Shown: piece by piece, positions 13,181 through 35,576 of the stretch | How positions within the stretch are numbered: position 1 is the first letter of the stretch | Layout of the letters: every line of letters starts with the position of its first letter | Assembly: GCA_028687545.1 (NCBI GenBank) | Contig: JAQTZZ010000002.1 | Span: forward strand, 74,087-138,086 | Reading direction: 5' to 3' | Source: Candidatus Wallbacteria bacterium | GTDB taxonomy: Bacteria > Muiribacteriota > JAQTZZ01 | DNA: 64,000 bases | Notes under the pieces: model-generated | Database searches by the model: none | The model's input: the letters and a program-made list of their open reading frames with translations, nothing else | Told to the model about the DNA's origin: nothing | Position numbers and translations under genes: made by a program

Positions 13181-13214
13181 AAAAAAAGGGCACGGTTTCC
13201 CGTGCCCTTTTGGT
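13181..13214 (-). terminator. Strong rho-independent terminator (bidirectional hairpin) immediately 3' of giant gene A
   Basis: The sequence is AAAAAAAGGGCACGG-TTTC-CCGTGCCCTTTT. On the minus strand the hairpin is followed by TTTTTTT. The same element occurs again at 24402..24434. Confidence 0.8.
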
Positions 13215-16200
13215 TCACTCATGATTGTATTCGATTCTGGTCTTCTGTCTCTTCAGCAGTTCGTCCATCAGTTTGGTGTCCAGGATCCAGAAAGGCACCA
13301 GGATCGCCCTGGTATTGTTGGACTTGTCTGTGACAGAGATCTTGAGCAGTTCAGGTTCAAGCGGCAGTTGCTCGAAATCAAGGCGTGTGCTTTCCTTGAA
13401 CTGGGTGAAGAAGATGGCATGCTTATGGCCTGTGTTGTCTGTCATGATCGGGATATTCTCAGTCGGGAGATTGACCCAGGCCCCGTCCGGATCGGTAACG
13501 CCAGGCGTTTTCTTGACTTCGATCTTCACATTACCGGCGAAAGTCACAGGGAATACTCCATTGTGTCCCTCGATCAGGTTGTGGGAGATGAAAGGTGCAT
13601 TTTCAATACAATCGACATTGTCGCGGGCTTTGACTTCAAAAGCCACTCTCATGTCCTCGTCAATGCCTAGCACATTCGGCTTATTCGGAGTCAGGTCGCC
13701 AATGTACTGGCCGAAATCGAAAAACTCCGCTTTCATGTAGTTGTTGCCTGGCATCGGCTGATCCACGGCATCGAGGGAATACACATTCCTGTCGATGAAA
13801 TAGTCGAAGATGTCACGTGGCTTATCGACAGTCTCGTCATTCCCTTCCACCAGCCTGGGCTCATTTTTCCCGTCGCCTGTGACTATGATCCGGATCTTTC
13901 CGCGCTCGCTGGTGACGCTGTTGAGCGGATTCAGGCCTGTTCCGCCCCATTCCGTATTATCCACAAGGGCAGTCAGGCTGGGAGTGGTGGAATTGTCGAT
14001 TTTAATGCCGTTCATGCCCTCGTCCACGAATCCATATCTGGGATCCAGAAAGATGTCGTCCCTGTCATCGTCATTCACCTGATACTTGATCACCCTGCTC
14101 AGTTTGGGTATCACGACAGTGAATGACAGTTCAGGCGGGTCATTGTCGTGCACCATCAGCTTGGCAGCGTATTTCCAGGGGGCATTGGCATCGTCGCCTG
14201 CAGTTTCAGGCGGAATGATCGGAGTGCCGTTGGAATTGAGATAATTGCCCTTGCCGTCTGTGCCGTAAACATACCAGTAAAGGTAACTGGCATAGTTTTC
14301 CGGCAAAGGACCAACAGTTCTCTTTGGATTGTAAAGAAAGAGGAATCTGTGCATGTATTTCTGAAGTCCGCCTGTTTTCCCAGGCTGACTTACATGGTAG
14401 TAACTGGAATCATCAGGCGGATTATCCACTGAGCCGATAATACGGGTAAAATCGTCATCCAGCTTGCCGTCAACGTTCAGGTCTACCAGAGAACCTTCGG
14501 GTATCTGGACGCTCATGTCCAACTGGCTCTGGTAATCAGTGTAAACCGAGTCCACAGTGCGGTCCTGCAGCTGATCGAAACGCCTGTTCCCTGAGTTGGC
14601 GGTCGGGTTTTCGATCTGGACTCTGAGCTTGAAATCATCGGGCTTCAGCGCCACATTGGGATTGTTGTCCAGGACCACATACTGGATTTCCCTTGGGAAG
14701 AGGTCGGCTGTGGTGCCGCCGTCCGCGTAATCGTCAGTGACGTAATAATAAAGCGCAGGTCCTTCTTTATCCACGACTTCGATCTGATACCCGAAATCCT
14801 TGGAACCCGGGGTCCCGGTATCAATATCGTGATAGCTGGTATGCCTTGGCGTATCGCAGGTCAGGTCATAGTAATTAAACTTTGGGGGCACTACGTCCGG
14901 GACCTGGTCGCGGGGTTCCCATTTCACGCATGGGTAATCGAAATCCAGCCAGAGGTAATAGCAGGCGAATTTGGGATCAGGTGCGCCGGACAGAGGCATC
15001 ACAAATTTATACAGATTCTGCTGCGTCGTGAGATTCAGCTTGACTTTGAACACATGCCTGTCCGCAAAGTTCGGAGGATTCCAGGTGTCCCAGGCCACTG
15101 TCTCATCCAGAGGCCCGTCAGTGTTGTTCCTGTATTCCACCACTGTGTCGTCTGACAAATCTCCTTTTTCGAACATGGTCTGTGTCCAGCGGTAAATGGG
15201 GGTGCCTGAGCTGTTGTCGAAGATGAATGCACCTACCCACCACTGGTACTTGATCTCGCCCCAGTCCTTTTTCCTGTCGAGATGGGAGTTGCCTGCGCCA
15301 GGGTCGAGCTGCGATGTGCCGAAGATCCCGATCCCGTTATCATTGCTGACAGGAACATCAATCCCGTTATAGGGATAGTCCTCCAGAGTGGTCTTCTGGT
15401 CGCTGTTGATGTCAACTGATCCGCCTGGGACCAGGTCGCCCGGGTTGCCTGTCAGACAGGCGGCCTTATCATTGACGTCAGTGGCCAGAGAAGGTTTGTA
15501 GTTGTTGGGTTTAAGCCCGTCGCCTTTGTAGTTCCAGACGCCCACTCCGTCATAACTGTCCACCAGGGAAGTGGATCCGGCATCATGCAGATGGAACTGG
15601 TAATACTTGCCCCACTGCACATAGAATGTGGCGTAAATCGGGACTCCGGTATCCTCGTCCACCTGCTGCGGGGCATGGATGTTGACCTGGTGGATGTAAC
15701 CCGGGGTAGGAGCGTTTTCATTGCCCACATGTATCACATGCTCTGCGATGAAATTCATGTCTGAATTCTTCCAGGCAGCCGGAGGAGTTGATGGCGCATA
15801 TCCGCCCGGGAGGAAGCATTTCGCGTCTCTCCACTCGAACGGGCAGGAGCTGGAAGTGGCCATGGCGTAACCAAGAGATTTGCGCTGGTCGATGAAAGAG
15901 GGGAATTTCATTGTCTCATAATTGTAGCGCTGATATACGGCCAGAACCTGGACTTTGTAAATGCCGCGGTCTCTGAAGAGAATCTTGAATCCCTTGCGCT
16001 CGATCTGAGCCGCACCATTCACCATGTATAGATAATTGTCAGGCTCATTGGTAGCTGAGACGTCGATCTTGACGCCCTGTCCGGCACTGGTGAGCACATT
16101 CTGGGGCTGCCCGTCGATCGGAGGATTGACAAACGGATCGACTTTTTCGCCTGTGATTTTATTGCCGAGAGTGGCATTGGGCATCCAGAATTCATACAGT

Positions 16201-17530
16201 ACATTGCTGCTCTGGAGCACATCGATCACCCGGATATAATAGATCAGGCCTGGGCCTGCGTTCGTGCCCTCGATCAGTCCGATCGGGTAGCCGCCTGTGA
16301 ATCCGTTGGAACTCAAAGGCTGATGTGTCGAAAGCGTTGATTCGCCGTAATTGTTGTTTTTATTCAGGTAGTCACCGGCAAAAGAAGGCGGGTTTTCAAT
16401 GTAAAATGTATAAGCCAGGTCTTCTTTCAGATAGTCATCATTGGGTTTAGCCGGATCTTTGGGAGGCAATGGATTCGTGTTGTTGGAATCAGGATCCATG
16501 CAGACAAAATCCACATGTGAGATGTCATCGCCCGCAATCGGAGGGCCGGCTATGTTTACGACTGCAATGTCTGTATCTATTGCTCTCACATCCACCATGC
16601 TTGTGCTCATGTCGAGCACTGCGGGAGAACTGAAAAACGGGTCCCAGACCAGAGTGTTTCCCGCGTACCAGCCATAATCCTGGCGCTTCCAGATGTTCCC
16701 GCCCAGAAAGATCTTGAACATCAGGTAATGGTCTGCGATGTTGTTTTCCTTGACCCTCCAGACACTGTAATACCAGCCGTCGGAAAAGACGGAAGTCCAT
16801 CTTTTGGTCAGCTTGGCCTGCTGTGGAGTGGGAGGCGGTTCGCCAGGCTGTGGAACATATGTGTAATCATTGATGTCTTTGACCTGGTCCGGCGGCCACA
16901 AGGTATTGGGATCCCATCCCTGGGGTTTCAATTCCTGGGTTTTTATCCCATAGTAAACATTGCCCTGTCCGTCTGCAGCGATGGCTTCGATCGTACCCGG
17001 CACATTGTTCGGGATGGAAAAAGTCACTGAAGTGCCTGCTGTCAGTCCGATCATCTCGGTTCGATTGAAGGACCTGAGGTCAGGCTGCAGTTCGTACTTG
17101 ATGCCGCCCAGGCCGTCCCACTGGTCTGCCACGCACATGTCTATGGCATCAGAGTAATAAAACCAGTCTTCCTGGCTGTTCTTGGTGGCAGCTCCGATGG
17201 AGGAAGTATGGTCAGGCAGATTCACCTGCTGAGCGCTGCCGTCCATGGCAGTAGGCTTCGCGTATGACAGGCCGTCTACATCGGTTTCCACAGTTTCCAT
17301 CTGTCCGATTTTCAAGATCTCATCCGGAACAGTGGTATAGAAATATCTGCGGCCAGTGCAGCTCACTGCTATGTCCATCCTGCCTGTGGGAGAAACGTTG
17401 GGCTGGTCATTATAGTTTTCACCAGGAGGAGAGTCTCCGCAGGATGCGCCCAGAGCCTGATAGGTATAGTTGCACTGGAACAGATGGAAAACCTGCTCGA
17501 ATGCGTTGAACTGACTGGAATAAGGATCCC
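13181..17530. repeat. High-identity duplicated tract copy A (~97-98% nt identity to 24402..28770)
   Basis: Direct by-eye comparison of the first ~400 nt after the terminator shows only scattered substitutions. Protein identity is above 90% across the corresponding translation. Confidence 0.6.
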
Positions 17531-18299
17531 AGGAACCTGCGACAGCGATCGGCCTGTGAGGGTCATTGTAATAATCGTCCCAGAAAGTGAGGTCCCGCTC
17601 CTCGTAATTCTTGATCAGGGAATGCTGGCCACGTCCGTAATGGCCCCAGCCAATGTTATCGTTGCAGTGCATGAAAGTGAAGTAACCGTTGGGGAGCTGG
17701 GCAAAGCAGTTGGTGTCTATGTCGCAGCCATTGGGCACCAGGAGATTGCCGAAATCGTCTTTCCAGAAATTGGTGTTGAAATCAAAGGCCGAGCCCCATT
17801 GTCCCCCGCTTACCCACCATCTCCAGCCGTGGACATTGAATCCGTGTCCGAAATGGTTGTTCCAGTTGTTGGGATAAGAGCAATAGATCCATTGCCCGTT
17901 GATACCCATCACTACCCTGAAAAAAGTCCGGTTGACCAGAGTGGGGACATCGAATCCTTCAGCGGTCAGCCTGGCCAGCTCCGCAGGGGTGACGCGGGGC
18001 GGCCCGAAAGCAGTAGTCTTGTTGCAGAGGAGGTATACGTTGCTGAACATGTCGACAGCGATCGCCTTGCCTGAATCGCCCGGCATGAAGAGCCGTTTGG
18101 CCTTGGGGTCATTTCCCTGGTCCACAATAATGGTCTCTGTGCTCTCATGGAAAGGACCGTAAACTCCCTTGTTGATTCCATCGCCGACCAGAACATAGAC
18201 ATCGCCGTTGCGCTTGTAGATATCCTTATTGGAATATGTCGCTACTGCAAAAACCGCACTGCCTGCCATTAAGAGCAACAACAGAAAGATTTTCCTCAT
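13215..18299 (-). CDS. Giant secreted protein, paralog A (1694 aa), unknown function. A hypervariable cassette near the N-terminus sits in an otherwise conserved body.
   Basis: The reading frame is intact and a signal peptide MRKIFLLLLLMAGSAVFAVA is present. I recognised no known catalytic or sorting motif. It is about 90%+ identical over its C-terminal ~1400 aa to the ORF at 24434..29638. Confidence 0.7.
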   Translation of the reverse strand: MRKIFLLLLLMAGSAVFAVATYSNKDIYKRNGDVYVLVGDGINKGVYGPFHESTETIIVDQGNDPKAKRLFMPGDSGKAIAVDMFSNVYLLCNKTTAFGPPRVTPAELARLTAEGFDVPTLVNRTFFRVVMGINGQWIYCSYPNNWNNHFGHGFNVHGWRWWVSGGQWGSAFDFNTNFWKDDFGNLLVPNGCDIDTNCFAQLPNGYFTFMHCNDNIGWGHYGRGQHSLIKNYEERDLTFWDDYYNDPHRPIAVAGSWDPYSSQFNAFEQVFHLFQCNYTYQALGASCGDSPPGENYNDQPNVSPTGRMDIAVSCTGRRYFYTTVPDEILKIGQMETVETDVDGLSYAKPTAMDGSAQQVNLPDHTSSIGAATKNSQEDWFYYSDAIDMCVADQWDGLGGIKYELQPDLRSFNRTEMIGLTAGTSVTFSIPNNVPGTIEAIAADGQGNVYYGIKTQELKPQGWDPNTLWPPDQVKDINDYTYVPQPGEPPPTPQQAKLTKRWTSVFSDGWYYSVWRVKENNIADHYLMFKIFLGGNIWKRQDYGWYAGNTLVWDPFFSSPAVLDMSTSMVDVRAIDTDIAVVNIAGPPIAGDDISHVDFVCMDPDSNNTNPLPPKDPAKPNDDYLKEDLAYTFYIENPPSFAGDYLNKNNNYGESTLSTHQPLSSNGFTGGYPIGLIEGTNAGPGLIYYIRVIDVLQSSNVLYEFWMPNATLGNKITGEKVDPFVNPPIDGQPQNVLTSAGQGVKIDVSATNEPDNYLYMVNGAAQIERKGFKILFRDRGIYKVQVLAVYQRYNYETMKFPSFIDQRKSLGYAMATSSSCPFEWRDAKCFLPGGYAPSTPPAAWKNSDMNFIAEHVIHVGNENAPTPGYIHQVNIHAPQQVDEDTGVPIYATFYVQWGKYYQFHLHDAGSTSLVDSYDGVGVWNYKGDGLKPNNYKPSLATDVNDKAACLTGNPGDLVPGGSVDINSDQKTTLEDYPYNGIDVPVSNDNGIGIFGTSQLDPGAGNSHLDRKKDWGEIKYQWWVGAFIFDNSSGTPIYRWTQTMFEKGDLSDDTVVEYRNNTDGPLDETVAWDTWNPPNFADRHVFKVKLNLTTQQNLYKFVMPLSGAPDPKFACYYLWLDFDYPCVKWEPRDQVPDVVPPKFNYYDLTCDTPRHTSYHDIDTGTPGSKDFGYQIEVVDKEGPALYYYVTDDYADGGTTADLFPREIQYVVLDNNPNVALKPDDFKLRVQIENPTANSGNRRFDQLQDRTVDSVYTDYQSQLDMSVQIPEGSLVDLNVDGKLDDDFTRIIGSVDNPPDDSSYYHVSQPGKTGGLQKYMHRFLFLYNPKRTVGPLPENYASYLYWYVYGTDGKGNYLNSNGTPIIPPETAGDDANAPWKYAAKLMVHDNDPPELSFTVVIPKLSRVIKYQVNDDDRDDIFLDPRYGFVDEGMNGIKIDNSTTPSLTALVDNTEWGGTGLNPLNSVTSERGKIRIIVTGDGKNEPRLVEGNDETVDKPRDIFDYFIDRNVYSLDAVDQPMPGNNYMKAEFFDFGQYIGDLTPNKPNVLGIDEDMRVAFEVKARDNVDCIENAPFISHNLIEGHNGVFPVTFAGNVKIEVKKTPGVTDPDGAWVNLPTENIPIMTDNTGHKHAIFFTQFKESTRLDFEQLPLEPELLKISVTDKSNNTRAILVPFWILDTKLMDELLKRQKTRIEYNHE

Positions 18300-18403: not shown

Positions 18404-19366
18404 TCAGGACTTGAGATTATCCTTCAGGTACTGCAGGACTGCAGCCTTGAATTTGGGATTTATTTCACTCGCTCCGATCAGGGATTCAACAACTTCGTAA
18501 GTCAGGTCCTGGCTTTCGCTCTGTATGAATTCGGAAAAGTCGGGCCTGGCCATTGGAGAACTTTTTTTCGCGATCAGTTCCGAAAGATAAGACATGGTAA
18601 AGGTCTTGATCTTGTCTTCAGGGCTCATTTTCTGGCCTTCTGCCAAATTAGGCTCTCCCACAGACATCATGTTCACCCGCTCGTAATTGGCAGTGAGTTT
18701 ACCGGAATCTGAAGATCCGGATGGGAGCAGATTCTCATAAACCCCGCTGTTCAGGACCAGCTTGATCCCTTTTTTATCTGCAACTGTTTTCAGGGCAGTC
18801 TTGATTTCAGCAAGAATCCTGGAAGTTAACTGGGCAGCTTCCCCGGTGGTGTAGAATTCCACTGAAGATTCCGACTGCTTTAACTGCAATTGCTCACTGT
18901 TCAGTTTCAGAGTTTCCAGTTCCAGTGAATCCAGCTTGTCCTGATATGGCTTCATGGCACGCTCAGCCTCGTCGTGAAACTGGAGATTCAGCTTGGCAAT
19001 GTCCACTTTGCCGGTCATTTTTTTCTGCTGCTCTTCAAAGAGGCTGCTTTTCATGCCGAGAATCCTGCTGCAGGTCTGGTTTTTCTCAGCTGCCAGATCA
19101 TTCAGCCTCTTGGCAATTTCTTCATTCCGCGTCTTATTCCTGGCTTTCAGCCTGTCTTTTTCGACGCTGCGGGTTTTCCTGGCTTCTTCAATCGCACTGA
19201 CAGTCAGTTTTCCCTCTACCGGACGCAGAAAAGTCCCTGCTTCAGGATAATAATAAAGAATTGTCATGGGATGATAATAAAAAGCCAGGTTCAGATTGAT
19301 GGTTCCGACAGGTTCAGCGAGCAGGGTTGAACACACCATCAACAATGTCAGGACTGAATATTTCAT
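18404..19366 (-). CDS. Skp/OmpH-like periplasmic chaperone paralog (320 aa, coiled-coil rich), upstream of giant gene A
   Basis: It has a signal peptide. A post-signal motif EPVGTINLNLAFYYHP resembles the Skp N-terminal beta-strand. A long K/E/Q-rich coiled coil follows. The segment VADKKGIKLVLNS resembles the Skp C-terminal AKKGY..ILD segment. The 4-bp ATGA overlap with the upstream ORF suggests translational coupling. Confidence 0.45.
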   Translation of the reverse strand: MKYSVLTLLMVCSTLLAEPVGTINLNLAFYYHPMTILYYYPEAGTFLRPVEGKLTVSAIEEARKTRSVEKDRLKARNKTRNEEIAKRLNDLAAEKNQTCSRILGMKSSLFEEQQKKMTGKVDIAKLNLQFHDEAERAMKPYQDKLDSLELETLKLNSEQLQLKQSESSVEFYTTGEAAQLTSRILAEIKTALKTVADKKGIKLVLNSGVYENLLPSGSSDSGKLTANYERVNMMSVGEPNLAEGQKMSPEDKIKTFTMSYLSELIAKKSSPMARPDFSEFIQSESQDLTYEVVESLIGASEINPKFKAAVLQYLKDNLKS

Positions 19367-20235
19367 CTTGCTTCCTCCTTATTAAGGGCATTAACGAGCA
19401 TTTCCTGCAGTTCAGAAGCGAATTTATATTTTTCAAAAATTCCCTGCAAAATCTCCAGGGAATAATCAGCTCCACCATAGACGATGAATTTATCCCTGTC
19501 AGTCAAGCTGTTTAACCTGAATTTAAATCCCTGGCTCATGAAATATGAAAATCTCTGCCTTTCCTGTTCAGTAAAACTGTCTTTGTCCAGGGCGCACAGA
19601 TCGTTGATATGGTAAATCACAGAAGCGGCAGAATTGATACTTCCGGGATAAAATATGATCCTCTCGACCTGATGCGCCTTTTTAACCTTGCTGATCCCTT
19701 CATTAATATCCGTCCAGATCTGTTTTCTGATTTTTTTCTGCTCTTCCTGCGTCGCTGAATATGCTGAAAAACTCTTCATGATTTTATCGATTTTTCCGCC
19801 TACTTCAATCAGTTTCTTCAAAAGTACACTCTGCAGGGCAAGATATTTTTTCTCTTGTTCTGAACTTGGTTTTCCTGTTTCAGTTTTTCTGTATTGATTT
19901 ACAAGGTCTGATCTCTGAATTTCGATCCCCTGTTTCTCCTTGATCAGGGTATTAAGCTCTTTTTTCAGTTCATTGTCTCCCTGCTCGGAATTTGCGATGA
20001 AATCCCTGCGGACATAGGCAAGGCTGGCCTGGCTGAATTCGTTGTTTTTCAGCGATTTGAGCGAAATGAACCCGTCAGTGTCAGGCAGATAGAAGAAAAC
20101 TGTGTAAGGGTGGAGCCTGTAAAGCAAAGCCAGATCCACACTGCCGAAATCAGCACAGGCTGGAAAGATGACAGCCAAAACAGCGGCGAAAAAGAGCCTT
20201 TTCATATTTTCCCTTTCCGACTGAGTCATGCTCAT
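19363..20235 (-). CDS. Second Skp/OmpH-like chaperone paralog (290 aa), first gene of the operon
   Basis: It has a signal peptide. The motif DFGSVDLALLYRLHPY parallels the N-terminal motif of the neighbouring paralog. A coiled-coil region and a KKAHQVERIIFYPGS segment follow. Confidence 0.4.
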   Translation of the reverse strand: MSMTQSERENMKRLFFAAVLAVIFPACADFGSVDLALLYRLHPYTVFFYLPDTDGFISLKSLKNNEFSQASLAYVRRDFIANSEQGDNELKKELNTLIKEKQGIEIQRSDLVNQYRKTETGKPSSEQEKKYLALQSVLLKKLIEVGGKIDKIMKSFSAYSATQEEQKKIRKQIWTDINEGISKVKKAHQVERIIFYPGSINSAASVIYHINDLCALDKDSFTEQERQRFSYFMSQGFKFRLNSLTDRDKFIVYGGADYSLEILQGIFEKYKFASELQEMLVNALNKEEAR

Positions 20236-20309: not shown

Positions 20310-20338
20310 ATTCTATCCGCGATTCTATGATCTGTCAA
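20310..20338 (-). promoter_or_regulatory. Sigma70-type promoter (TTGACA-N17-TAGAAT) for the Skp-like/Skp-like/giant operon A
   Basis: On the minus strand, TTGACA (plus-strand 20333..20338) is followed by a 17-nt spacer GATCATAGAATCGCGGA and then TAGAAT (plus-strand 20310..20315). The whole ~65 bp element is conserved upstream of operon B at 31640..31707. Confidence 0.5.
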
Positions 20339-20437: not shown

Positions 20438-21700
20438 ATGTTATGTTTGAAATGCAGGAGATCTCCAGTGCCTGGTAAGGTCAAAAATCTTTTTCTGCTG
20501 CTCACTTTTGTGACTGTTCTGCATTTTATCGTGTTTTCCTGGCTAATGAATGTCGTCCCCCTGCTGAGCGGGATTTCCGGTTATGACTGGCCGACTATGC
20601 TGCTCCTGCTTCTCGGAAATCTCTGGTTTGTTTTCTGCGGCTTGAAGTATCAGGAAAACCAGGAAGACTTCCGCTGGAGCCTGTATCTTTCCGGCTACCT
20701 GCTCCTGCTGGTTTTTCTCTTCCTGCTGAATCGAAGACTTCTGTTGTTCCTGATGGGGGTCTTTCTCTATTCCGGGATGTATCACAACAGGAATCGGACA
20801 GTTTATCTCTTCATTTTCCTGTTTTCTCTCATTGCATTCAGCGCTTACTGGGTTTCAGGATGTCTGCTCTTATCTTTCATCTACGCTGTTTTAAGCGGGC
20901 TATGGGAACGCCTGAGCAGCGGGTTTGAAAAAGTGCTGGCCTTGTCGGGCGGACTGATTCTGCTGCTGGTGATTTTCCCGCTGCTTAACCTGCTTTTCCA
21001 GTATCAGCCCCAGACCCTGATCAATGCCTGCAGTCCGGAAATATGGAATGCCATGCAACTGAGTGCAGTCACAGCATTGATCTCGACTCTGATCATTCTA
21101 GTACTGGGTGTCCCGCTTGCCTATATCATGGCCAGGAACGATTTCAGGCTGAAAGCCGCAGTCGATGCTTTGATCGACCTGCCGATCATGGTTCCTCAGA
21201 CAGCGGCAGGAATCGCCATTCTGGTCCTGGTCGGCCCTAAAACACCTCTGGGAGACTTTTTAGCTCAGCAATTCGGAATGTCTTTTGCCGGAACAGCCAT
21301 CGGCATTATCTGCTGCCAGATCTTTGTCAGTTTCCCATTTCTGGTACGGTCTGCGATCAATGCCTTTGAAGCGGTGGACGCGAAATTCGAAAATGCCAGC
21401 CGCTCGCTGGGTGCATCTGCAGCCCTGACTTTTTTCCGGATCACCCTGCCACTTGCCGCGCCTGGGATTTTCAACGGCTGCATCCTGAGTTTTTCCAGGG
21501 CTCTCTCCGAAGCAGGCAGCCTGATGATCGTAGCTTACAGGCCGAGCACGATCCCGATCATGATCGATGACACATTCAATCAGTTCGGCATGCGGGAGGC
21601 TGCCCCGATCACAGTAGTGTTTGTGGGCATCTGCTTCTGGGGGTTCATTTCCCTGAAGTGGCTTTATGAAAACCAGAAGAGAAGGCTGAAACAAGCTTGA
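20438..21700 (+). CDS. ABC transporter permease, molybdate/tungstate/sulfate (CysTW/ModB/WtpB) type, with an extra N-terminal membrane domain of about 170 aa
   Basis: The C-terminal half carries the BPD-transporter fold and EAA-loop region ENASRSLGASAALTFFRITLPLAAPGI. The N-terminal 170 aa are hydrophobic. The true start codon is uncertain. Confidence 0.7.
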   Translation: MLCLKCRRSPVPGKVKNLFLLLTFVTVLHFIVFSWLMNVVPLLSGISGYDWPTMLLLLLGNLWFVFCGLKYQENQEDFRWSLYLSGYLLLLVFLFLLNRRLLLFLMGVFLYSGMYHNRNRTVYLFIFLFSLIAFSAYWVSGCLLLSFIYAVLSGLWERLSSGFEKVLALSGGLILLLVIFPLLNLLFQYQPQTLINACSPEIWNAMQLSAVTALISTLIILVLGVPLAYIMARNDFRLKAAVDALIDLPIMVPQTAAGIAILVLVGPKTPLGDFLAQQFGMSFAGTAIGIICCQIFVSFPFLVRSAINAFEAVDAKFENASRSLGASAALTFFRITLPLAAPGIFNGCILSFSRALSEAGSLMIVAYRPSTIPIMIDDTFNQFGMREAAPITVVFVGICFWGFISLKWLYENQKRRLKQA

Positions 21701-21716: not shown

Positions 21717-22661
21717 TTGAACAAATTCTTCGACGAACCGTTTCTGCCGGTGATGGGAAGCTGGTTCGACGGTTTTCCGTTAGCCCTGATCTCCCTGCTT
21801 CTGATAGCAGGGATGATATTCATGATAAATCTGCGGAATGCATGGCTGCAGCGGGCGAGGCGGGCCGTCCAGACCATCTCCCTGCTGGTTTTTGCCCTTT
21901 TCGTGTATCAATGCCTCTGCCTGATGCGGCTTTTCATGTTCGGGCTCGGCGAAATCGGAAAAAACGACCTGGTTTCATTCTCCCAGCTGAGCCTGTTTGC
22001 CGTAGTCGGAGGATTCTCGTTTTTTGCGGGACGCATTTTCTGCGGCTGGGTCTGCCCGCTTGGATTTCTGCAGGAAATAGTGAATTCAATCTCCCCGGTG
22101 AAAGGAAAAGCTGCTAAACTGATCCTCCTAACAGCATTGTTCTGCACAGCCCTGGTCACCATGCTCAGAACCTTGCCGGCTAATGAATTTGCAGTGGAAT
22201 ATGTCACTGCTGTCTTCGCCTTTCTGATGATGATCAGCCTTTTCCTGCTCCTGATCAGCCCGGCCCTGGAGCAGGCTCTGATGAACTTCCGTTATGTACC
22301 GATGTTCGTATATAGTGCGCTGAGCCTCTTGGGTATTTATTTCAGTGACGCCTGGTGCTCGCTCTATGGCTTTGAGGCAGACACCTCCTCACTGATCTCG
22401 CTCTGCATTGTCCTGTCAGCCTCGTTTATCGTGGCCACTCCCTGGTGCAGATTCATGTGCCCGACAGGTCTGTTTCTGGCTCTTATCGGAAAAGACGCTT
22501 TCTACAGGCTTAAGCTGGGCCATCTGCCTCCGATACACGAACCATGCAGGCAAGCCTGTCCGTCAGGCGCGATCAGTGAGCAGGGTATAGACTGCCTGCT
22601 CTGCATAAGCTGTGGAACCTGCAAGGAAACCTGCGGTTCGAAGTACGGTTTTTTCAAGTAA
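21717..22661 (+). CDS. NapH/MauN/FixG-family 4Fe-4S polyferredoxin-like integral membrane protein
   Basis: The diagnostic CxxCP motifs FCGWVCPLGFLQE and WCRFMCPTGLF are present. The C-terminal tail CRQACPSGAI...CLLCISCGTCKETC is a ferredoxin-type cluster. Multiple TM helices are predicted. Confidence 0.7.
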   Translation: MNKFFDEPFLPVMGSWFDGFPLALISLLLIAGMIFMINLRNAWLQRARRAVQTISLLVFALFVYQCLCLMRLFMFGLGEIGKNDLVSFSQLSLFAVVGGFSFFAGRIFCGWVCPLGFLQEIVNSISPVKGKAAKLILLTALFCTALVTMLRTLPANEFAVEYVTAVFAFLMMISLFLLLISPALEQALMNFRYVPMFVYSALSLLGIYFSDAWCSLYGFEADTSSLISLCIVLSASFIVATPWCRFMCPTGLFLALIGKDAFYRLKLGHLPPIHEPCRQACPSGAISEQGIDCLLCISCGTCKETCGSKYGFFK

Positions 22662-27400: not shown

Positions 27401-28770
27401 GTTGCCGCTCGTGGCATTTGGCATCCAGAACTCATAAAGCACATTGTTGCTCTGCAGCACATCGATCACCCGCACATAGTAAATCAGACCAGGCCCTGCA
27501 TTCGTGCCCTCGATCAGTCCGATCGGGTAGCCGCCTGTGAATCCGTTGAAATTCACCGGCTGATGGTTCTTGAGTGTCTGTTCTCCGTAATTGTTGTTTT
27601 TGTTCAGCCGGTCGCCTGCGAAGGAAGGCGGGTTTTCAATGTAATAATCGCACCATTGGTCTTCAGGAACATAGTCGTCATTGGGTTTGGTCGGATCCTT
27701 GGGCTGGATCGGATTCATGCTTCCGTCAGTGAGCGCGAAATCCACATGTGATATGTCGTCGCCTGCGATCGGAGGTCCTGCGATATTGACCACAGCAATA
27801 TCCAAATCCAGTTTTCTAACATCGATCCCTGAACTCAGGTCCAAGACTGCTCCATGACTGAACTGAGGATCCCAGACCACCTGGTTTCCTGCCATCCAGC
27901 CATAATCCTGGCGCAGGTATAAATTGCCACCGATGAAAATCTTGAACATCAGGTAATGGTCTGCAATATTGTTTTCCTTGACCCTGTATACACGGTAATA
28001 CCAGCCGTCAGACAGTACGGAGACCCATCTTTTTGTCAGAGCTGCCTGTGCAGGTGTGGGGGGAGGATCACCGGGCAGCGGAACATAGGTGTAATCCTGC
28101 AAGTTCTTGATCTGATCAGGAGGCCAGGCAGTGTCCGGATTCCAGCCTGCAGGTTTCTGTTCCTGGGTCCTGATTCCATAATAAATATTCCCGTTCCCGT
28201 CGGCTGCGATGGTTTCGATTGTACCTGGAATTGTGGCAGGAATTGAGAAATTCATCGTATTGTCCTCAGTGGGGCTTCCTGAGAGGCCTCCGCTGGGGTC
28301 GATCTGGTAACCGCCGATCATCTTGGAGCGATTGAAAGAGCGGAGGTCAGGCAATAGTTCGTATTTGATGCCGCCCAGCCCGTCCCACTGGTCGCAGACA
28401 GCCATTTGAGGGGATTCCGAATAATAAAACCAGTCAGAGCTGCGGTCCTTGGTAGCTGCGCCGATGGAGATCGTTCTGTCAGGAAGGTTGCACTGGACGA
28501 AAGCGGCAGTCATGGCAGTAGGCTTCATATAGCCAATTCCCTGGGCATCCGTTTCCACTGTTTCCATCTGGCCGATCTTCAGGATTTCGTCTGGAATCGT
28601 GGTATAGAAATACCGGCGGCCTGTGCAGCTCACTGCGATGTCCATGTGGCCTGTGGGGCTGACGATCGGCTGTTTGTCATAGTTTTCTCCCGGAGGGGAA
28701 TCGCCGCAGGATGCTCCCAATGCCTCATAAGAGTAATTACATTGAAACAGGTGAAAAACCTGTTCAAATG
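24402..28770. repeat. High-identity duplicated tract copy B
   Basis: See the matching tract at 13181..17530. Confidence 0.6.
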
Positions 28771-29638
28771 CGCTGAATTGCCCGGAATATGGGTCCCATG
28801 TTCCTGCAACAGTAATCGGCCGGTGACTGTCGTTATAATAATCATCCCAGAAGGTCAGGTCCCGTTCCAGATAATTATCGAGTCTGGCAAACTGGGAACA
28901 CATGAAGGAAACAGCATAATAATGCTGGACATGCATCGCAGTCTGGTAACCATTAGGCAGAATCGCATGGTTATTTGTATCAAAGCCATAGCCGTTAGGC
29001 ACCAGCAGATTTCCGAAATCGTCCTTGAAAACAGGCCCGCCATAGGTATGGGCGGCAATGAACAGAGGCGGGGCTACTGCGCCGCCCCAGAAGTCTCCGT
29101 ATGTCGAAAATCCGCATTGCGGCCAGCGCAGGCATCTGTTCTGATAATTATCGTAATAATGGCCGAAGTGGGTGCCACTGCCTCCACCAAGATTCCACCA
29201 GTTGACTCCATAGCCGGCATACAGCCACTCTCCGTTCGGCTGCATCACACAACGGTAAAAGTTCCTGCCGATCAGAATTGCAGGATCGTAACCTTCTGCA
29301 GTAAGCCTAGCCAGCTCAGCGGGTGTGACGCGCGGAGTCTGGAAATCCGTTGTCTTGTTGCAGAGCAGGTAGACATTGTTGAACATGTCGACAGCGATCG
29401 CCTTGCCGGAATCTCCGGGCATGAAAAGACGCTTGGCCTTGGGGTCTGAACCATTGTCCACGATGACTGTCTCTGAGCTTTCAGTGAAAGGCCCGTAAAC
29501 GCCTTTGTTTAGCCCGTCTCCGACCAGAATGTAAACCTGGCCGTTCCTTTTATAAATCTCGCTGTTGGCATAAGAAGGCGCACAATATCCGCTATAAACG
29601 ATTAGAAACAGGAGAAACAATACAAGGATTTTCTTCAT
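24434..29638 (-). CDS. Giant secreted protein, paralog B (1734 aa), unknown function
   Basis: It has a signal peptide MKKILVLFLLFLIVYSGYCA. The last ~60 aa are identical to paralog A, and the C-terminal 1400 aa are above 90% identical. The N-proximal segment is divergent. Confidence 0.7.
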   Translation of the reverse strand: MKKILVLFLLFLIVYSGYCAPSYANSEIYKRNGQVYILVGDGLNKGVYGPFTESSETVIVDNGSDPKAKRLFMPGDSGKAIAVDMFNNVYLLCNKTTDFQTPRVTPAELARLTAEGYDPAILIGRNFYRCVMQPNGEWLYAGYGVNWWNLGGGSGTHFGHYYDNYQNRCLRWPQCGFSTYGDFWGGAVAPPLFIAAHTYGGPVFKDDFGNLLVPNGYGFDTNNHAILPNGYQTAMHVQHYYAVSFMCSQFARLDNYLERDLTFWDDYYNDSHRPITVAGTWDPYSGQFSAFEQVFHLFQCNYSYEALGASCGDSPPGENYDKQPIVSPTGHMDIAVSCTGRRYFYTTIPDEILKIGQMETVETDAQGIGYMKPTAMTAAFVQCNLPDRTISIGAATKDRSSDWFYYSESPQMAVCDQWDGLGGIKYELLPDLRSFNRSKMIGGYQIDPSGGLSGSPTEDNTMNFSIPATIPGTIETIAADGNGNIYYGIRTQEQKPAGWNPDTAWPPDQIKNLQDYTYVPLPGDPPPTPAQAALTKRWVSVLSDGWYYRVYRVKENNIADHYLMFKIFIGGNLYLRQDYGWMAGNQVVWDPQFSHGAVLDLSSGIDVRKLDLDIAVVNIAGPPIAGDDISHVDFALTDGSMNPIQPKDPTKPNDDYVPEDQWCDYYIENPPSFAGDRLNKNNNYGEQTLKNHQPVNFNGFTGGYPIGLIEGTNAGPGLIYYVRVIDVLQSNNVLYEFWMPNATSGNKVTGEKVDPTVTPVIDGQPQNVLTNAGQGVKIDIKVTNEPDNYLYLVSGQPQIERKGFKILFRDRGIYKIQVMGVYQRYNYETMKYPSFIDERVSLGYAMATSCFSTIDWRSAACFLPGGYTPSNPPDAWKKSNMNFIAEHVVHVGNENAPTPGYIHQVNIHAPQQVDEDTGVPIYATFYVQWGKYFQYHLGDASITSKVDSYDGVGIWNYDKPSPGGDGRKPNNYKPSVNTDINDKAACLTGSPGDLVAGGSADINSDGKSTLEDYPYNGIDVPVSNDNGTGIFGTSQLDPGAGNSHLDRKKDWGEIQYHWYVGAFIFDNSSGTPIYRWTQTMIKKGDLSDDTVVEYRNNTDGPLDETVPWDTWNPPNFADRQVFKVKLNLTPQQKLFEFVMPLSGAPDSKFACYYLWLDFDYPCVKWEPRDQVPDVVPPKYNYYDLTCDTKRHTSYHDIDTASPNSKDFGYQIEVVDTEGPALYYYVTDDYADGGTTADLFPREIQYVVLDNNPNVALKPNDFKLRVQIENPTANSGNRRFDQLQDRTVDSVYTDYQSQLDTSVQIPEGSLVDLSGDSKIDDDFALLIGSVDTPPDDSSYYHVSQPGKLGGLMRYMHRFLYLYNPKDTVGPLPENYASYLYWYVYGTDGKGNYLNSNGTPIIPPEAAGEAVDPIAPWKYAAKLLVHDNDPPELSFTVVIPKLNRVIKYQVADDDRDDIFLEPKYGFGDEGMGGTRIDDSTTPGLTALVDNTEWGGTGLNPLNNGTSERGKIRIIVTGDGKNEPRLVDGNDETVDKPLNIFDYFIDKNVYSLDAIDQPMPGNNYMKAEFFDFSQYIGDKTPDKPNVLGIDEDMRVAFEVKARDNVDCIENQPFISHNLIEGHNGAFPVTFAGNVKIEVKKTPGVTDPDGAWINLPTENIPIMTDNTGHKHAIFFTQFKESTRLDFEQLPLEPELLKISVTDKSNNTRAILVPFWILDTKLMDELLKRQKTRIEYNHE

Positions 29639-31771: not shown

Positions 31772-32716
31772 ATGAGAAAATCAACCGGATTTTTTTACCT
31801 CTTGATTTTAGCCGGGACTCTGCTTTGCAAGGGCTGCGGGGACTCTCCCCAGGTGATTGTCTTTCATGCCGGCAGCCTTTCCAGGCTGATGTCTGATCTG
31901 AAAGCCGGATTCGAAGCCGCTAATCCCGGGGTGGAAGTCATCCTGGAGGCCTCAGGAAGCATCCCTGCCTGCCGTAAAACCTCTGAGCTGCATCGCCAGG
32001 CAGACATCATCGCAGTCTCGGATTCTCAGGTAATTGAAAGACTGCTTTATCCGAAGTTTTCTGACTGGTCCCTTGTTTTCGCAGGAAATAAAATGGGAAT
32101 AGCCTATGGGGAACATTCGAAATACGGCGAAGAAATTAATTCAGACAACTGGTTTGAAATCCTCTCCCGCAAGGACGTGAAACTTGGACGGGCCGATCCT
32201 GACCTTGATCCCTGCGGCTATCGCACGCTTTTCTGCTGGAAGCTATCAGACGTTTTCTATCAGGAAAAGCTTGCCGGGAAAAGCATCGCCGCCTCACTTG
32301 AAGCGAACTGCCCTCCGGCAAACATGCGGCCGTTCGAGCTGGAACTGGTGGCACTCCTGCAGAGCTATGCTTTGGATTACGTTTTCATCTATGAATCGAT
32401 CGCCAGGCAGTTCAATCTGAAGTTTGTGGACCTTCCGGATAAAATCAATCTGGGTACCACCACAGAAGCCGCTTTTTATTCCAGCGTGGATTTCCAAGTA
32501 AACGGAGGCGGGGAGAAGGAATTTACAGTCTCTGGGCAACAGATCTGTTATGCCTTCACGATCCCTGAAAGTGCTCCCCACCCGCAATTGGCCCTCAAAT
32601 TCGGTGAATTCATGCTGAAAAGCAGGGAAATCTCCGACAACTTCTATCAGACAGTGGAAGCAGCCTCGCTGCACCCCGAAAATCTTCCTCGTGAACTGAG
32701 GAAACTGCTGCCATGA
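31772..32716 (+). CDS. Molybdate/tungstate-type ABC substrate-binding protein (copy B)
   Basis: It has a signal peptide with a lipobox-like LCKGC. The segment VIVFHAGSLSRLMSDLKAGFEAANPGVEVILEASGS matches the type. It is a paralog of 22673..23605. Confidence 0.65.
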   Translation: MRKSTGFFYLLILAGTLLCKGCGDSPQVIVFHAGSLSRLMSDLKAGFEAANPGVEVILEASGSIPACRKTSELHRQADIIAVSDSQVIERLLYPKFSDWSLVFAGNKMGIAYGEHSKYGEEINSDNWFEILSRKDVKLGRADPDLDPCGYRTLFCWKLSDVFYQEKLAGKSIAASLEANCPPANMRPFELELVALLQSYALDYVFIYESIARQFNLKFVDLPDKINLGTTTEAAFYSSVDFQVNGGGEKEFTVSGQQICYAFTIPESAPHPQLALKFGEFMLKSREISDNFYQTVEAASLHPENLPRELRKLLP

Positions 32717-33375
32717 AAAGCCGGATTCTCATGCTGTGCGCCGTTTTTCTGCTGAGAATTGCTTCAGCCTGTCCGGCTTACACAGTGATGGATTCAACCA
32801 ACAATGACATGAAGGCGGCTTCAGCCAAACTATACTGGAGCGTGATCTTCTCGCTGAACAAATATGAGACCGGAACTTCGGAAGCGTCAGTTTTCAGAAC
32901 TAACTGGGATCAGCTTTCCTCTGTCTGGATGTTGTTTCAGACTAAGCTCGAAAACTGGCTGCGCCTGCTGCCTGAAGATCTGGGGCGGAAGGACTGGGAA
33001 AACGCCCTGAAGTCATTCTCTGATAACATCCAGACCATTAGAACCCAGATCGCGGCAGGCAGCCTGGAAATTTCGCTGGCAACAGCAGCCGAACTCAAAA
33101 CAGAACTCCTGCTTTTTTATCATTGCAATCCCCTGGACGGGGCAAAATATGCAGCTGAAACAGGCGATAAATTGCTGCTTGCAAAAGTGGCTGCGAATCT
33201 CTCCCTTCTCAAGGACCTCCCTGAACCATTGCTTGAATTCCGGAAACACCTGAATAGTCTTTATGAGAATTTCGACGATGCGCACTGCAGGGAATTTCTT
33301 GTCTGGAGGGAATCTCAAAGAATAAATCTGAAGAAGGAGTTGAGCGCTTACTTTGAAAAGCACAGCTGGTATTGA
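32713..33375 (+). CDS. Small secreted protein of unknown function (copy B)
   Basis: It has a signal peptide and the motif LFQTKLENWLRLLPED. It overlaps the upstream gene by 4 bp. Confidence 0.45.
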   Translation: MKSRILMLCAVFLLRIASACPAYTVMDSTNNDMKAASAKLYWSVIFSLNKYETGTSEASVFRTNWDQLSSVWMLFQTKLENWLRLLPEDLGRKDWENALKSFSDNIQTIRTQIAAGSLEISLATAAELKTELLLFYHCNPLDGAKYAAETGDKLLLAKVAANLSLLKDLPEPLLEFRKHLNSLYENFDDAHCREFLVWRESQRINLKKELSAYFEKHSWY

Positions 33376-34588
33376 CAGAATCGCAGCCGCTTTAGTCGTG
33401 CTGATACTGATCCACCTGCTTGTCTTTCCTCAGGTGATCGAAAAAATTCCCTTGCCAGGAGGAAAGACTGCCACAGACTGGCCGCTGGTGATGGTTGTAT
33501 TCTGCGCCAATCTCTTTTTTTTACTCTCCGGTTCCCTGCAGAGTGGAAGGCGCGGTTTCAGCTGGGAAATCTTTTTGTGCACTTATCTTCTACTGTTCGT
33601 GCTGATTTTCGTCCTGGCCGGGCGAGTGCTGTTCTTTGTGCTTTCGATATTTATGCTCTCAGGCTTGTATCATGACAAGCGCAAGCTGGGCTACCTTTTC
33701 CTGTTCCTGGCCTCGGTTCTGCTGGTATCAGCTTACTGGATCCCTGCTTTTATCTTATTTTCATTTCTTTACTACATTGTCCTGGAAACTGCCGGCAGAG
33801 TGGAAAATACCATGGAGAAGATATTCCTGGGCATCGGAATCTTACTTCTGCTCCTGCTGCTTTTCCCATTGATCAACCTGCTCTTTCAGTTCCAGGCGCA
33901 GACGCTTGTCGCATCCTTTTCTCCGGCACTGAAAGAGGCCCTGTTTACCAGTTGCCTGACCAGCGCGGTCTCCACGATCCTGATCCTTTTATTCGGTATA
34001 CCGCTCGCTTACATCATGGCCAGAAAGGAATTCGGCTGTAAACCTGTGATCGACGCGCTGATCGACCTGCCGATCATGGTTCCCCAGACTGCAGCGGGGA
34101 TAGCGATCCTGGTGCTGCTGGGGCCGAATACCCCGCTGGGAGAATTCTTTTCCGGATGTTTCGGTCTCTCTTTTGCCGGGAGCTATCTCGGGATCATCGC
34201 CTGCCAGATGTTCGTGAGCAGTCCTTTCCTGCTGCGTTCCGCGATCCATGCCTTCTCTGGAGTAGACCGCAGGCTGGAGAATGTCAGCCGTTCGCTCGGT
34301 GCGAAACCCCTGGCCACATTTCTCCGCGTCTCGCTGCCCCTGGCTTCTGCCGGTATCTTCAACGGCTGCATCCTCTGCTTTTCCAGAGCCATCTCCGAAG
34401 CCGGCAGCCTGATGATAGTCGCCTACAGGCCGGCCACAATCCCGATTCTGATCGACGACAACTTTTCCCGCTTCGGAGTGCGTGAAGCGGCTCCACTCTC
34501 AGTGCTGTTCATAATCATCTGCCTCTGGGGTTTCATAGTTTTGAAATGGCTTTATGAGACCAGGAAGAAGGCGGTGCTGCTGCCGTGA
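33353..34588 (+). CDS. ABC permease (ModB/WtpB-type) with an N-terminal membrane extension (copy B)
   Basis: It is a paralog of 20438..21700 and carries the EAA-loop region ENVSRSLGAKPLATFLRVSLPLASAGI. Confidence 0.7.
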   Translation: MKSTAGIDRIAAALVVLILIHLLVFPQVIEKIPLPGGKTATDWPLVMVVFCANLFFLLSGSLQSGRRGFSWEIFLCTYLLLFVLIFVLAGRVLFFVLSIFMLSGLYHDKRKLGYLFLFLASVLLVSAYWIPAFILFSFLYYIVLETAGRVENTMEKIFLGIGILLLLLLLFPLINLLFQFQAQTLVASFSPALKEALFTSCLTSAVSTILILLFGIPLAYIMARKEFGCKPVIDALIDLPIMVPQTAAGIAILVLLGPNTPLGEFFSGCFGLSFAGSYLGIIACQMFVSSPFLLRSAIHAFSGVDRRLENVSRSLGAKPLATFLRVSLPLASAGIFNGCILCFSRAISEAGSLMIVAYRPATIPILIDDNFSRFGVREAAPLSVLFIIICLWGFIVLKWLYETRKKAVLLP

Positions 34589-34604
34589 CGGAGAAAAATC
34601 CCAG

Positions 34605-35576
34605 ATGAACATCAGCTATCCGATCAAAAAACTCATGTCTGAACCGCTGCTTCCCATCAAAGGCAGCTGGATCGATGCCTTTCCTCTCTTACTGGTGTTC
34701 GGAATTTTACTTCTAGCTGCATTCCTCTTAGCCAGGAAAACCAGTTTCCACGAAATCCTGCGGAATCTCTGCCGGATCATGACTGCCTTCATTTTCGTAT
34801 TCTTTCTCTTCAAGTGCCTCTGCATCGTCAAGCTTGCAGCTTTCGGATTTTCCGAGATCGGCAAGGACGACCTGATCTCATTTTCCATGCTCTGGCTGAT
34901 CGCGGTCGTGGGCTCCGCGACTTTCCTGTTTGGCCGGATTTTCTGCGGTTTTCTCTGCCCGGTAGGGTTTCTGCAGGAAATATCCGGACGCTTTTCTCCG
35001 CTGAAACAAAGCTTCACGAAAAAAATCTATCTTTCCCTGCTTCTGATTCTGTCATCTCTGCTTCTCTATGAAGTCTGGCCTGCCAATGAGTTCGCCTTTG
35101 AATTCGTGATTGCCATCCTGAGCTTTATCATGGTGGGGATAGCGCTGCTGGTTCAATTCAGGCCTGATCTGGAACCTGCCCTGTTGAAAGCGAAGTATCC
35201 GATCCTGGCGGTCTACCTCTTCATCAGCGTGCTGGGAATCTATTTCAGTGAGGTCTGGTGCACCCTGTATGGAGCTGAAATCGACTATTCTTCGATCATT
35301 TCACTGCCCCTGGTGATTCTGGCCGCCCTGGCTGTCGGCATGCCATACTGCCGCTATGTCTGCCCGACCGGTTTTTTCCTGGCCCTCTGCAGTAAAACTT
35401 CTTTGTACTCCATCCACGGCAATTGCATTGACTGCGGCATGCCCTGCGGGAAAATATGTCCTTCAGGCGCTCTTTTCAAGGGAAAAATCGATCCCCTGCT
35501 CTGCATCTCATGCGGACGCTGCATAAAGAACTGCACTGCAGAATACAGAAGGCGAGACGGAAAACCGGATGTTTAA
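34605..35576 (+). CDS. NapH/MauN-family 4Fe-4S membrane protein (copy B)
   Basis: It carries FCGFLCPVGFLQE, YCRYVCPTGFF and a C-terminal ferredoxin-like cysteine cluster. I chose the start at 34605 (MNISYPIKK...) because it aligns with the copy-A N-terminus and sits 11 nt after a GGAG. The track ORF begins earlier, at 34554. Confidence 0.65.
   Translation: MNISYPIKKLMSEPLLPIKGSWIDAFPLLLVFGILLLAAFLLARKTSFHEILRNLCRIMTAFIFVFFLFKCLCIVKLAAFGFSEIGKDDLISFSMLWLIAVVGSATFLFGRIFCGFLCPVGFLQEISGRFSPLKQSFTKKIYLSLLLILSSLLLYEVWPANEFAFEFVIAILSFIMVGIALLVQFRPDLEPALLKAKYPILAVYLFISVLGIYFSEVWCTLYGAEIDYSSIISLPLVILAALAVGMPYCRYVCPTGFFLALCSKTSLYSIHGNCIDCGMPCGKICPSGALFKGKIDPLLCISCGRCIKNCTAEYRRRDGKPDV

Follow-up and report, generated by a model that had tools for sequence, protein, structure and literature searches.

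The segment considered here is a 64-kb window (the whole stretch of DNA that was analysed, 64,000 nucleotides) from a metagenome-assembled genome (MAG) of Candidatus Wallbacteria. It contains two tandem modules, A and B, which feature the same seven genes: two genes for Skp-like proteins, one for a giant exported protein of about 1,700 residues and, as transporter-related genes, those for a substrate-binding protein (SBP), a permease of an ATP-binding cassette (ABC) transporter, a membrane polyferredoxin and a small secreted protein. An earlier note on this DNA had taken the recurrence of the set in both modules as an argument for a functional unit of all seven genes. The comparison with related loci instead divides the set: the giant and its one or two Skp-like neighbours constitute a conserved, well-supported unit, whereas SBP, small protein and permease are a separate cassette that was duplicated along with it. 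The listing of open reading frames (ORFs) agrees with the coordinates and strands noted before for all fourteen genes, which are arranged with their signals as follows.

Module A, 13181-24403, seven genes with their signals, the terminator of giant A included:
13181..13207, minus strand: terminator of giant A, intrinsic type; G+C-rich stem of 8 bp, loop GAAA, 7 T
13215..18299, minus strand: giant A; acidic protein (net charge about -87) of 1,694 aa with signal peptide, assigned to an orphan family
18404..19366, minus strand: Skp-like 2A; 320 aa, assigned as divergent, elongated Skp/OmpH homologue with C-terminal insertion
19363..20235, minus strand: Skp-like 1A; more divergent second Skp-like protein, start probably at 20205, possible lipoprotein (FPAC)
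20310..20338, minus strand: promoter-like site of operon A; TTGACA-17-TAGAAT, 11/12 matches
20438..21700, plus strand: permease A; WtpB/ModB-type core, N-terminal extension of ~160 aa (4-5 transmembrane segments), Pfam BPD_transp_1
21717..22661, plus strand: membrane polyferredoxin A; NapH-like architecture, two Fer4_5
22673..23605, minus strand: SBP A; WtpA-type, tungstate/molybdate class (TIGR03730)
23708..24403, plus strand: small protein A; 231 aa, signal peptide, member of the transporter cassette
Module B, 24402-35576, the same seven genes, accessory order permuted relative to module A:
24402..24426, minus strand: terminator of giant B, intrinsic type; its T run and the stop codon of small protein A overlap
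24434..29638, minus strand: giant B; 1,734 aa
29748..30716, minus strand: Skp-like 2B; 322 aa
30713..31570, minus strand: Skp-like 1B; 285 aa
31672..31700, minus strand: promoter-like site of operon B; TTGACA-17-TAAAAT, 11/12 matches
31772..32716, plus strand: SBP B; WtpA-type (TIGR03730)
32713..33375, plus strand: small protein B; 220 aa, gene overlaps that of SBP B by 4 nt
33353..34588, plus strand: permease B; N-terminal extension
34554..35576, plus strand: membrane polyferredoxin B; Fer4_5 type

All seven gene pairs were matched by blastp, which establishes the modules as paralogous, with identities of 79% for the giants (1,722 columns), 55% for the SBPs, 54% for the permeases, 48% for the Skp-like 2 pair, 46% for the Skp-like 1 pair, 45% for the small proteins and 44% for the polyferredoxins; the accessory genes are permuted between the copies exactly as the earlier note had described. 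Likewise, the minus-strand operon proposed therein, running from a promoter through two Skp-like genes and the giant to a strong terminator, was found in both modules. The two best sigma-70-like sites within 13-32 kb (11/12 matches) are located just upstream of the Skp-like 1 genes, and the hairpin GGGCACGG-GAAA-CCGTGCCC with its T run follows both giants in identical form. In addition, the genes for Skp-like 1A and 2A overlap by 4 nt. Aligning the upstream regions of A and B revealed conservation of the promoter, part of the 5' untranslated region (UTR) and the ribosome-binding site. Since copy B starts at the position aligned to 20205, the ATG at 20205 (MKRLFF...) is the probable start of Skp-like 1A instead of 20235, while gene and strand stand as noted. 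Promoter and 5' UTR of A and B are not conserved upstream of the third giant paralogue of the same MAG (locus L001). Transcription of the Skp-giant operons and that of the transporter genes diverge from intergenic regions of ~200 nt, and the transporter genes of module B overlap each other.

Modules A and B descend from one old tandem duplication. Its age follows from the synonymous divergence (dS) between the copies, which in each of the six accessory pairs, as in the first ~610 codons of the giants, is either saturated or higher than 1.3. Across giant codons 611-1660 the values decrease to 0.39-0.92, and in the last 34 codons dS equals 0, with the adjoining terminators being identical too. 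The 3' two-thirds of the giant genes have been homogenised by gene conversion, whereas the N-terminal third diverges; the gradient spans the 3' parts at 13215-15200 versus 24434-26400. With a ratio of nonsynonymous to synonymous divergence (dN/dS) of 0.08-0.18 throughout, both giants are functional and under purifying selection. Owing to the origin in one duplication, the two modules therefore represent a single observation with regard to functional linkage, and it is a general caution that tandem paralogous modules enter linkage arguments as one observation, not two.

Relatives of the giants were collected by an exhaustive HMMER search with a profile of giant residues 1-1140 against 1.84 billion cluster representatives, which returned 69 proteins at E<=1e-3, 16 of them at E<=1e-30. 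Distant relatives comprise 1,350-2,150 aa and share mainly the region of profile positions ~290-715. Where a source is named, it is a MAG carrying the label Wallbacteria or Riflebacteria, or Cloacimonadota in a single instance, which applies to the loci compared below as well; all of the named proteins are annotated as hypothetical. A scan of GTDB species representatives revealed 13 giant loci in nine genomes, four of which feature two each, and the MAG of the window carries at least three copies. P0001 (PHW04_01410), a protein of a Candidatus Wallbacteria MAG, has the same sequence as giant B. The previous statement that no known motif could be assigned was borne out, as the giants belong to no described family according to Pfam, NCBIfam (standard thresholds) and PDB sequence searches, the last with the family profile at E<=10. 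Twelve family members searched against Pfam gave nothing at E<=0.01 and weak matches to the SBBP propeller repeat in 4/12 at E<=1; moreover, no Pfam domain was found in five distant relatives that were scanned.

The giants are classed, by what their sequences reveal, as an orphan family of acidic, non-repetitive, Sec-exported proteins of ~1,700 residues. The signal peptide is their sole hydrophobic segment, the net charge amounts to about -85 to -87, and the composition includes 9% Asp, 7% Asn, 8% Gly and 7% Pro. All-against-all hhalign comparison of 140-residue slices detected no internal repeats (probability <=8.6%), for which reason an initially considered array of immunoglobulin (Ig)/cadherin repeats was dropped. 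At an overall identity of 23%, four proline-rich motifs are invariant, namely N-x-x-G-P-P (581-586), ENPP-F (634-639), DNNPN (1210-1214) and DNDPP-L-F (1384-1392); DNDPP.L.F and DNNPN have a cadherin-like look. A single cysteine is invariant across the giants, and the N-terminal ~95 residues are among the best conserved parts of the family. Pfam and hydropathy gave no RTX/type I secretion, autotransporter, two-partner secretion (TPS), type IX secretion system (T9SS) C-terminal, SLH S-layer or LPXTG/PEP-CTERM domain and no C-terminal sorting signal, and no barrel family was matched in Pfam. The C-termini (EYNHE, LPWQ, NPDGL, ETRRGE, ETRRSE) are devoid of a terminal aromatic beta-signal, and the last element resembles an amphipathic helix. 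An AlphaFold2 (AF2) model of giant A residues 1-1180, built on a six-row alignment, reached a mean confidence (pLDDT) of 33.

The gene neighbourhood was compared by calling ORFs in all fetched loci and matching them to the module proteins. This included 22 informative loci, of which 16 belong to the core family (modules A and B of the window, L001, L003-L006 and L008-L016), complemented by the distant loci L046, L047, L048, L050, L051 and L052; L002 and L007 were left out, being cut at the 5' end of the giant. In all 22 the giant adjoins one or two Skp-like genes. A Skp-like gene is located directly upstream of the giant in 16/16 core-family loci with a 5' flank, and in L046, L047, L048, L050 and L051 the gene before the giant matches the profile of the Skp-like A2 family (E 3e-40 to 1e-16), while in L052 the Skp-like gene lies directly downstream (E 1e-7). 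Skp-like and giant genes often overlap by 1-8 nt. Some loci contain a further Skp-like gene, which follows in tandem, is oriented divergently or lies a few genes off. The accessory genes behave differently: SBP, permease and small protein accompany the giant in the window only and are missing from 20 of the 22 loci. Thus L001, the third paralogue in the same MAG, consists of two Skp-like genes and the giant, lacks transporter and polyferredoxin and is flanked by unrelated genes (PAD_porph, Tricorn-like, kinase, glycosyltransferase). Outside the window, a NapH-like polyferredoxin was encountered only in L015 and L016, which are orthologous loci, there together with DsbD_2 and a DUF362 protein with a twin-arginine translocation (TAT) signal; DUF362 is also present in L011. 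The earlier note had declared that its claim would fail if giants were routinely found without Skp-like or transporter neighbours. Giants without the transporter are routine among these loci, whereas a giant without a Skp-like gene was never encountered. Accordingly, a functional unit of seven genes finds only partial support, since its two instances go back to one duplication and independent loci split the set in two.

Locus L015 (2-12496), from a distant relative, likewise contains two tandem giants, one ending at 2-2053 and the next starting at 9911. Skp-like genes, an ankyrin-repeat protein, a DsbD_2-type membrane protein, the TAT-signal DUF362 protein and a NapH-like polyferredoxin of 542 aa are encoded in between.

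As judged from profile, motif and model comparisons, the Skp-like proteins are true but divergent, elongated homologues of Skp/OmpH. The label given to them earlier holds with respect to profile homology (81-95% probability by hhalign), but not by the own threshold of the Pfam family OmpH (PF03938), which the window proteins miss with 14-16 bits against a gathering threshold of 32.4. Correspondingly, the Skp-like pairs match no Pfam or NCBIfam model at standard thresholds, and the best of 20 family members reaches 30.4 bits versus 32.4, with 4/20 at E<=0.01; precomputed PF03938 matches exist for the two relatives P0005 and P0006. Skp-like 2A is identical to PHW04_01380 of a Candidatus Wallbacteria MAG. 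In a whole-length alignment of 20 upstream ORFs from the window and related loci, a signal peptide and the motif GTVDLA..YA.HP.M.YYD...FIKP are shared, followed by a long coiled coil, EIKEA.K..A.KKG...V.N, a variable insert, GG.DLT..V and a last helix. The more divergent Skp-like 1A has the N-terminal GSVDLALLYRLHP motif, the coiled coil and a C-terminal GGADY/T motif in common with family A2, and the canonical Skp of the window ends in YFGGEDLTDEV, which is the same final motif as GG.DLT..V. Besides the signal peptide, the proteins contain no hydrophobic segment.

Aligned by hhalign, 27 Skp-like proteins matched three canonical Skps at 94.8% (E 1e-8, 180 columns); omitting the E. coli sequence gave 81-84%, controls with a reversed sequence and MlaD gave 0.1-0.2%, and a first comparison with a single Skp sequence gave 8%. 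AF2, run on a shallow alignment, predicted Skp-like 2A at pLDDT 77 as strand, long helical hairpin (helices 55-115 and 122-166), helix and strand. Foldseek with this model placed E. coli Skp (1sg2, 1u2m) and SkpA of the T9SS (8gl8) at ranks 2-5, 8 and 20 of 350,542 PDB chains, while the Skp-like profile against PDB sequences yielded coiled-coil noise only. Charge complementarity with the giants was considered as an argument for pairing and rejected, as the Skp-like proteins are near neutral.

SBP, small protein and extended permease form a separate cassette, and the description as a transporter of molybdate/tungstate type with an N-terminally extended permease stands. SBP A and B score 250.8 and 261.1 bits with TIGR03730 (WtpA, cut-off 242.75) and match the solved WtpA/ModA structures 3k6u, 3cij, 2onk_E and 3cg1 at E 1e-53 to 1e-56. 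The permease core (~165-410) aligns over all of ModB from A. fulgidus (2onk_C), the EAA coupling loop included, and is preceded by an extension of ~160 residues with 4-5 hydrophobic segments in the hydropathy profile. The small proteins match no Pfam or NCBIfam model at standard thresholds, small protein A no Pfam model even at E<=10, and a metagenome scan with the small protein found no relatives. The corresponding scan with the permease led to locus L017, which encodes an SBP (44% identity; 324.1 bits with TIGR03730), a small protein (30%) and an extended permease (55%) in the order of module B. Since the extension of the permease and the small protein are both present in L017, they are parts of the transporter cassette and not of the giant system. 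The stricter WtpA model NF003196 (cut-off 355) is passed by the SBP of L017 only. The ORF after the permease of L017 begins with MIKINDLSRSFGKFWFKNISF... and in this resembles the ABC ATPases encoded after the permease in the ordinary relatives L018, L022 and L025. In the window, the polyferredoxin stands where L017 has the ATPase gene. Indeed, the modules are free of an ABC ATPase, as had been noted: no ORF with Walker A and LSGG occurs within 13-37 kb, and the sole one of the window (57766-58497) is located next to MlaD. Since the permease keeps its ATPase-coupling loop, we infer that the ATPase is encoded elsewhere and supplied in trans, and uptake of the tungstate/molybdate class is predicted.

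Compared with WtpABC/ModABC class III importers (2onk; WtpA of P. furiosus, 3cg1), the SBPs passing the WtpA cut-off and the permeases spanning ModB constitute the likeness. In contrast to them, the cassette has no ATPase gene at the locus, a membrane domain of ~160 residues is added to the permease, and the permeases of A, B and L017 remain at 231-234 bits below the cut-off of 340 for the WtpB equivalog NF040839. It further differs by the extra small periplasmic protein and the polyferredoxin after the permease, and neither a molybdenum cofactor (Moco) riboswitch nor another riboswitch or shared RNA element was found near the transporter genes. The designation of the polyferredoxins as NapH/MauN-type is appropriate for the architecture but not for family membership. 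Like NapH, MauN, NosR and CcoG, which are Fer4_5 proteins, they feature several transmembrane helices, two Fer4_5 CX3CP motifs and the motifs of a C-terminal 2x[4Fe-4S] ferredoxin module. Unlike NapH/MauN, they score 27-39 bits against cut-offs of 213 (TIGR02163) and 234 (NF007013) and have no nap, mau, nos or cco genes nearby; a polyferredoxin search of PDB sequences gave no match.

Skp is viewed mainly as a general chaperone of outer-membrane proteins. The Skp-like proteins resemble Skp/OmpH (E. coli Skp 1sg2/1u2m, PF03938) in signal peptide, N-terminal strand motif, a predicted long helical hairpin, the helix-strand element (A.KKG..V.N) and GG.DLT..V. They differ in being ~2x longer (285-400 aa vs 140-175 aa mature), in predicted tentacles ~2x longer with helices of ~45-60 residues each, in 60-110 helical residues inserted ahead of the last motif and in being near-neutral instead of basic. 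Moreover, their genes lie beside one specific giant, and the genome encodes a canonical Skp besides them, in its BamA-LpxD cluster. The closest precedent is found in the Extended Translocon of the T9SS, in which a C-terminally extended Skp homologue, encoded together with a second one, structurally holds the N-terminus of the giant SprA (PMC10994853). This SkpA/SkpB-SprA system (8gl8) shares with the window two tandem Skp homologues with a C-terminal extension relative to E. coli Skp, and, as predicted for the window, a Skp homologue tied to a giant envelope protein, not to general outer-membrane protein traffic (PMC10994853). It is distinct in that the window features no T9SS-family gene and models of SprA and of barrels find no match in the giants. 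Also, the adjacency of Skp-like and giant genes is universal in the loci examined here, whereas skpA is not known to be adjacent to sprA in Bacteroidota. With S-layer proteins and giant adhesins, the giants have in common the acidic, D/N/G/P/Y-rich composition, the signal peptide, a strong promoter and terminator and the occurrence of several paralogues with gene conversion, but they differ from them in the absence of detectable SLH, RTX, Ig/cadherin, autotransporter, TPS and sorting-signal domains and of internal repeats.

The segment is thus read as composite, combining a lineage-specific Skp-like/giant envelope operon, in which the Skp-like proteins would be a dedicated holdase or scaffold, with a separate WtpA/WtpB-type cassette; we regard this as probable, if only by a little. 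The Skp-like proteins would form jellyfish-type oligomers with extra-long tentacles, which may hold the giant polypeptide, or dock a part of it, after Sec export. The held giant could in this way stay competent for assembly en route to the outer membrane or cell surface, where it might act as a surface or envelope protein, e.g., an adhesin or S-layer-like coat. SBP, small periplasmic protein and permease with its extra N-terminal membrane domain would serve oxyanion uptake; they were copied with the operon in the duplication and stand outside the conserved giant system. Several points weigh against this interpretation. Both the chaperone-client interaction and the surface location of the giant are predictions, the latter resting on composition and the lack of other features in a protein modelled at low confidence, and the operon encodes no route for export across the outer membrane. 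The near-neutral Skp-like proteins offer no obvious charge complementarity to the acidic giants. In addition, the NapH-like polyferredoxin directly upstream of Skp-like genes and giant in L015/L016 leaves room for a redox link, and both transporter copies are still found beside giants after long divergence and rearrangement.

The explanation favoured by the earlier note is that the seven genes are one system; transporter and polyferredoxin could then, e.g., supply metal or reducing power to mature, fold or anchor the giant. All seven genes having been kept in both diverged copies despite the rearrangement in copy A, the divergent transcription of operon and transporter genes from the short intergenic regions and the polyferredoxin of L015/L016 with DsbD_2 and TAT-DUF362 genes next to it, DUF362 being present again in L011, speak in its favour. 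It is nevertheless quite unlikely in view of the single duplication event behind A and B, the 20/22 giant loci, L001 of the same MAG among them, without SBP, permease and small protein, and the cassette standing alone with an ATPase on its own contig in L017; the lack of a riboswitch or shared RNA element and the single invariant cysteine of the giants count against it as well. Another explanation takes the giant as an outer-membrane machine, i.e., a very large barrel or translocon, with a Skp-like trimer as fixed structural part and not as transient chaperone, in the manner of SkpA with SprA. Outer-membrane proteins make up the established clients of Skp, the T9SS offers the precedent outlined above (PMC10994853), and here too two Skp homologues with C-terminal additions occur. 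The well-conserved N-terminal ~95 residues of the giant, the SkpA chains of 8gl8 among the top Foldseek matches and BamA-Skp-LpxD clusters near the loci in the window and L050 point in the same direction. A barrel fits poorly with C-termini (...EYNHE, ...LPWQ, ...ETRRGE) that lack a terminal aromatic beta-signal and end in an amphipathic-helix-like element, with a proline content of 7% and with the absence of Pfam matches to SprA or a barrel family, while several paralogues per genome undergoing gene conversion suit a surface antigen better than a core machine, so that this explanation appears rather unlikely.

In several lineages, ORFs with a prepilin-type N-terminus (G-F/Y-S/T-L-x-E) are repeatedly found close to giant operons, namely the following.

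L005 4169-6016: prepilin-type ORF
L013 3290-3793 and 3888-5744: prepilin-type ORFs
L048 16048-16962: prepilin-type ORF
L050 3328-4143: prepilin-type ORF
Window 59734-60621: prepilin-type ORF

The giant might hence be cargo or tip adhesin of a type IV filament or a type II secretion-like system, with the Skp-like proteins only escorting it. The ORFs of L005/L006 (615 aa), L013/L014 (167-171 aa and 618 aa) and L048 (304 aa) would agree with this, above all the 271-aa ORF of L050, which lies on the same strand and in the same gene string directly before two Skp-like genes. Most loci, however, have no prepilin-type gene, that nearest to the giants of the window is 24 kb off, and pilin-like genes are common in genomes, so that their recurrence may be chance; this explanation is considered highly improbable. 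A further-reaching proposal, drawn by analogy to the SprA-SkpA Extended Translocon, would see Skp-like oligomer and giant as an outer-membrane or surface machine of an undescribed kind in Wallbacteria, Riflebacteria and relatives, which in some lineages may be coupled to envelope redox modules (NapH-like polyferredoxin, DsbD-like, TAT-DUF362). It is more doubtful than likely by a wide distance, ranking between the machine and the seven-gene explanation.

Returning to the composite interpretation, what is most likely new here is a Skp-type periplasmic partner that would be dedicated to one very large envelope protein. Literature searches covering Wallbacteria, dedicated Skp-like chaperones and the combination of WtpA and polyferredoxin brought up no description of the giant family, the gene pair or the system, in agreement with the earlier note, which did not recognise it. 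If true, it would be a second, unrelated case of a Skp homologue dedicated to a giant envelope protein, with the link visible in gene order. The Skp-like proteins and the giant would offer a testable client-chaperone pair in phyla without cultured members. Moreover, the giant family provides a handle on the cell envelope of Wallbacteria and Riflebacteria and, as a large family of unrecognised fold, a target for structure determination.

Further genes of the window, beyond the two modules, are listed below.

35569-36882, plus strand: PQQ/BamB-like beta-propeller; signal peptide, LLLSC (possible lipoprotein), Pfam PQQ_2 and Beta-prop_ACSF4
46427-63014, minus strand: outer-membrane biogenesis cluster, 11-27 kb from the modules

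The beta-propeller gene overlaps polyferredoxin B by 8 nt and extends the transporter operon of module B; its product reaches 97.7 bits with the BamB model, under the cut-off of 285, and module A has no counterpart of it. The outer-membrane biogenesis cluster comprises LpxA, an LpxC-FabZ fusion, LpxD, LpxK, the canonical Skp, BamA, a TamB-like protein, MlaD and an MlaF-like ATPase, and because of it the organism is regarded as diderm. The canonical Skp (174 aa, OmpH at E 6e-26) is additional to the four Skp-like genes. In L050, from a MAG labelled Riflebacteria, a BamA-Skp-LpxD cluster (13558-16311) is located 3 kb downstream of the giant.

Large exported proteins form a run in the left half of the window, including, besides the giants, a 1,015-aa peptidase of M6/immune-inhibitor-A type (5811-8858, minus strand) and a lipoprotein-like protein of 753 aa (8959-11220, minus strand), which have repeated domains of ~80 residues in common. 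At the edge of the window, an open-ended ORF of >1,833 aa (2-5500, minus strand) has no Pfam match and is unrelated to the giant family; its C-terminal part features propeller-blade-like repeats of ~45 residues (YYD.TN.DLKYA). To the right of the modules, a protein of 1,595 aa combines HEAT and TPR repeats with DUF4062 and a NACHT/STAND NTPase (36980-41767, plus strand). After it comes a protein of 1,127 aa in which an adenylate/guanylate cyclase and HEAT repeats are fused (41846-45229, plus strand), and the two may be a STAND pair of signalling or defence type.

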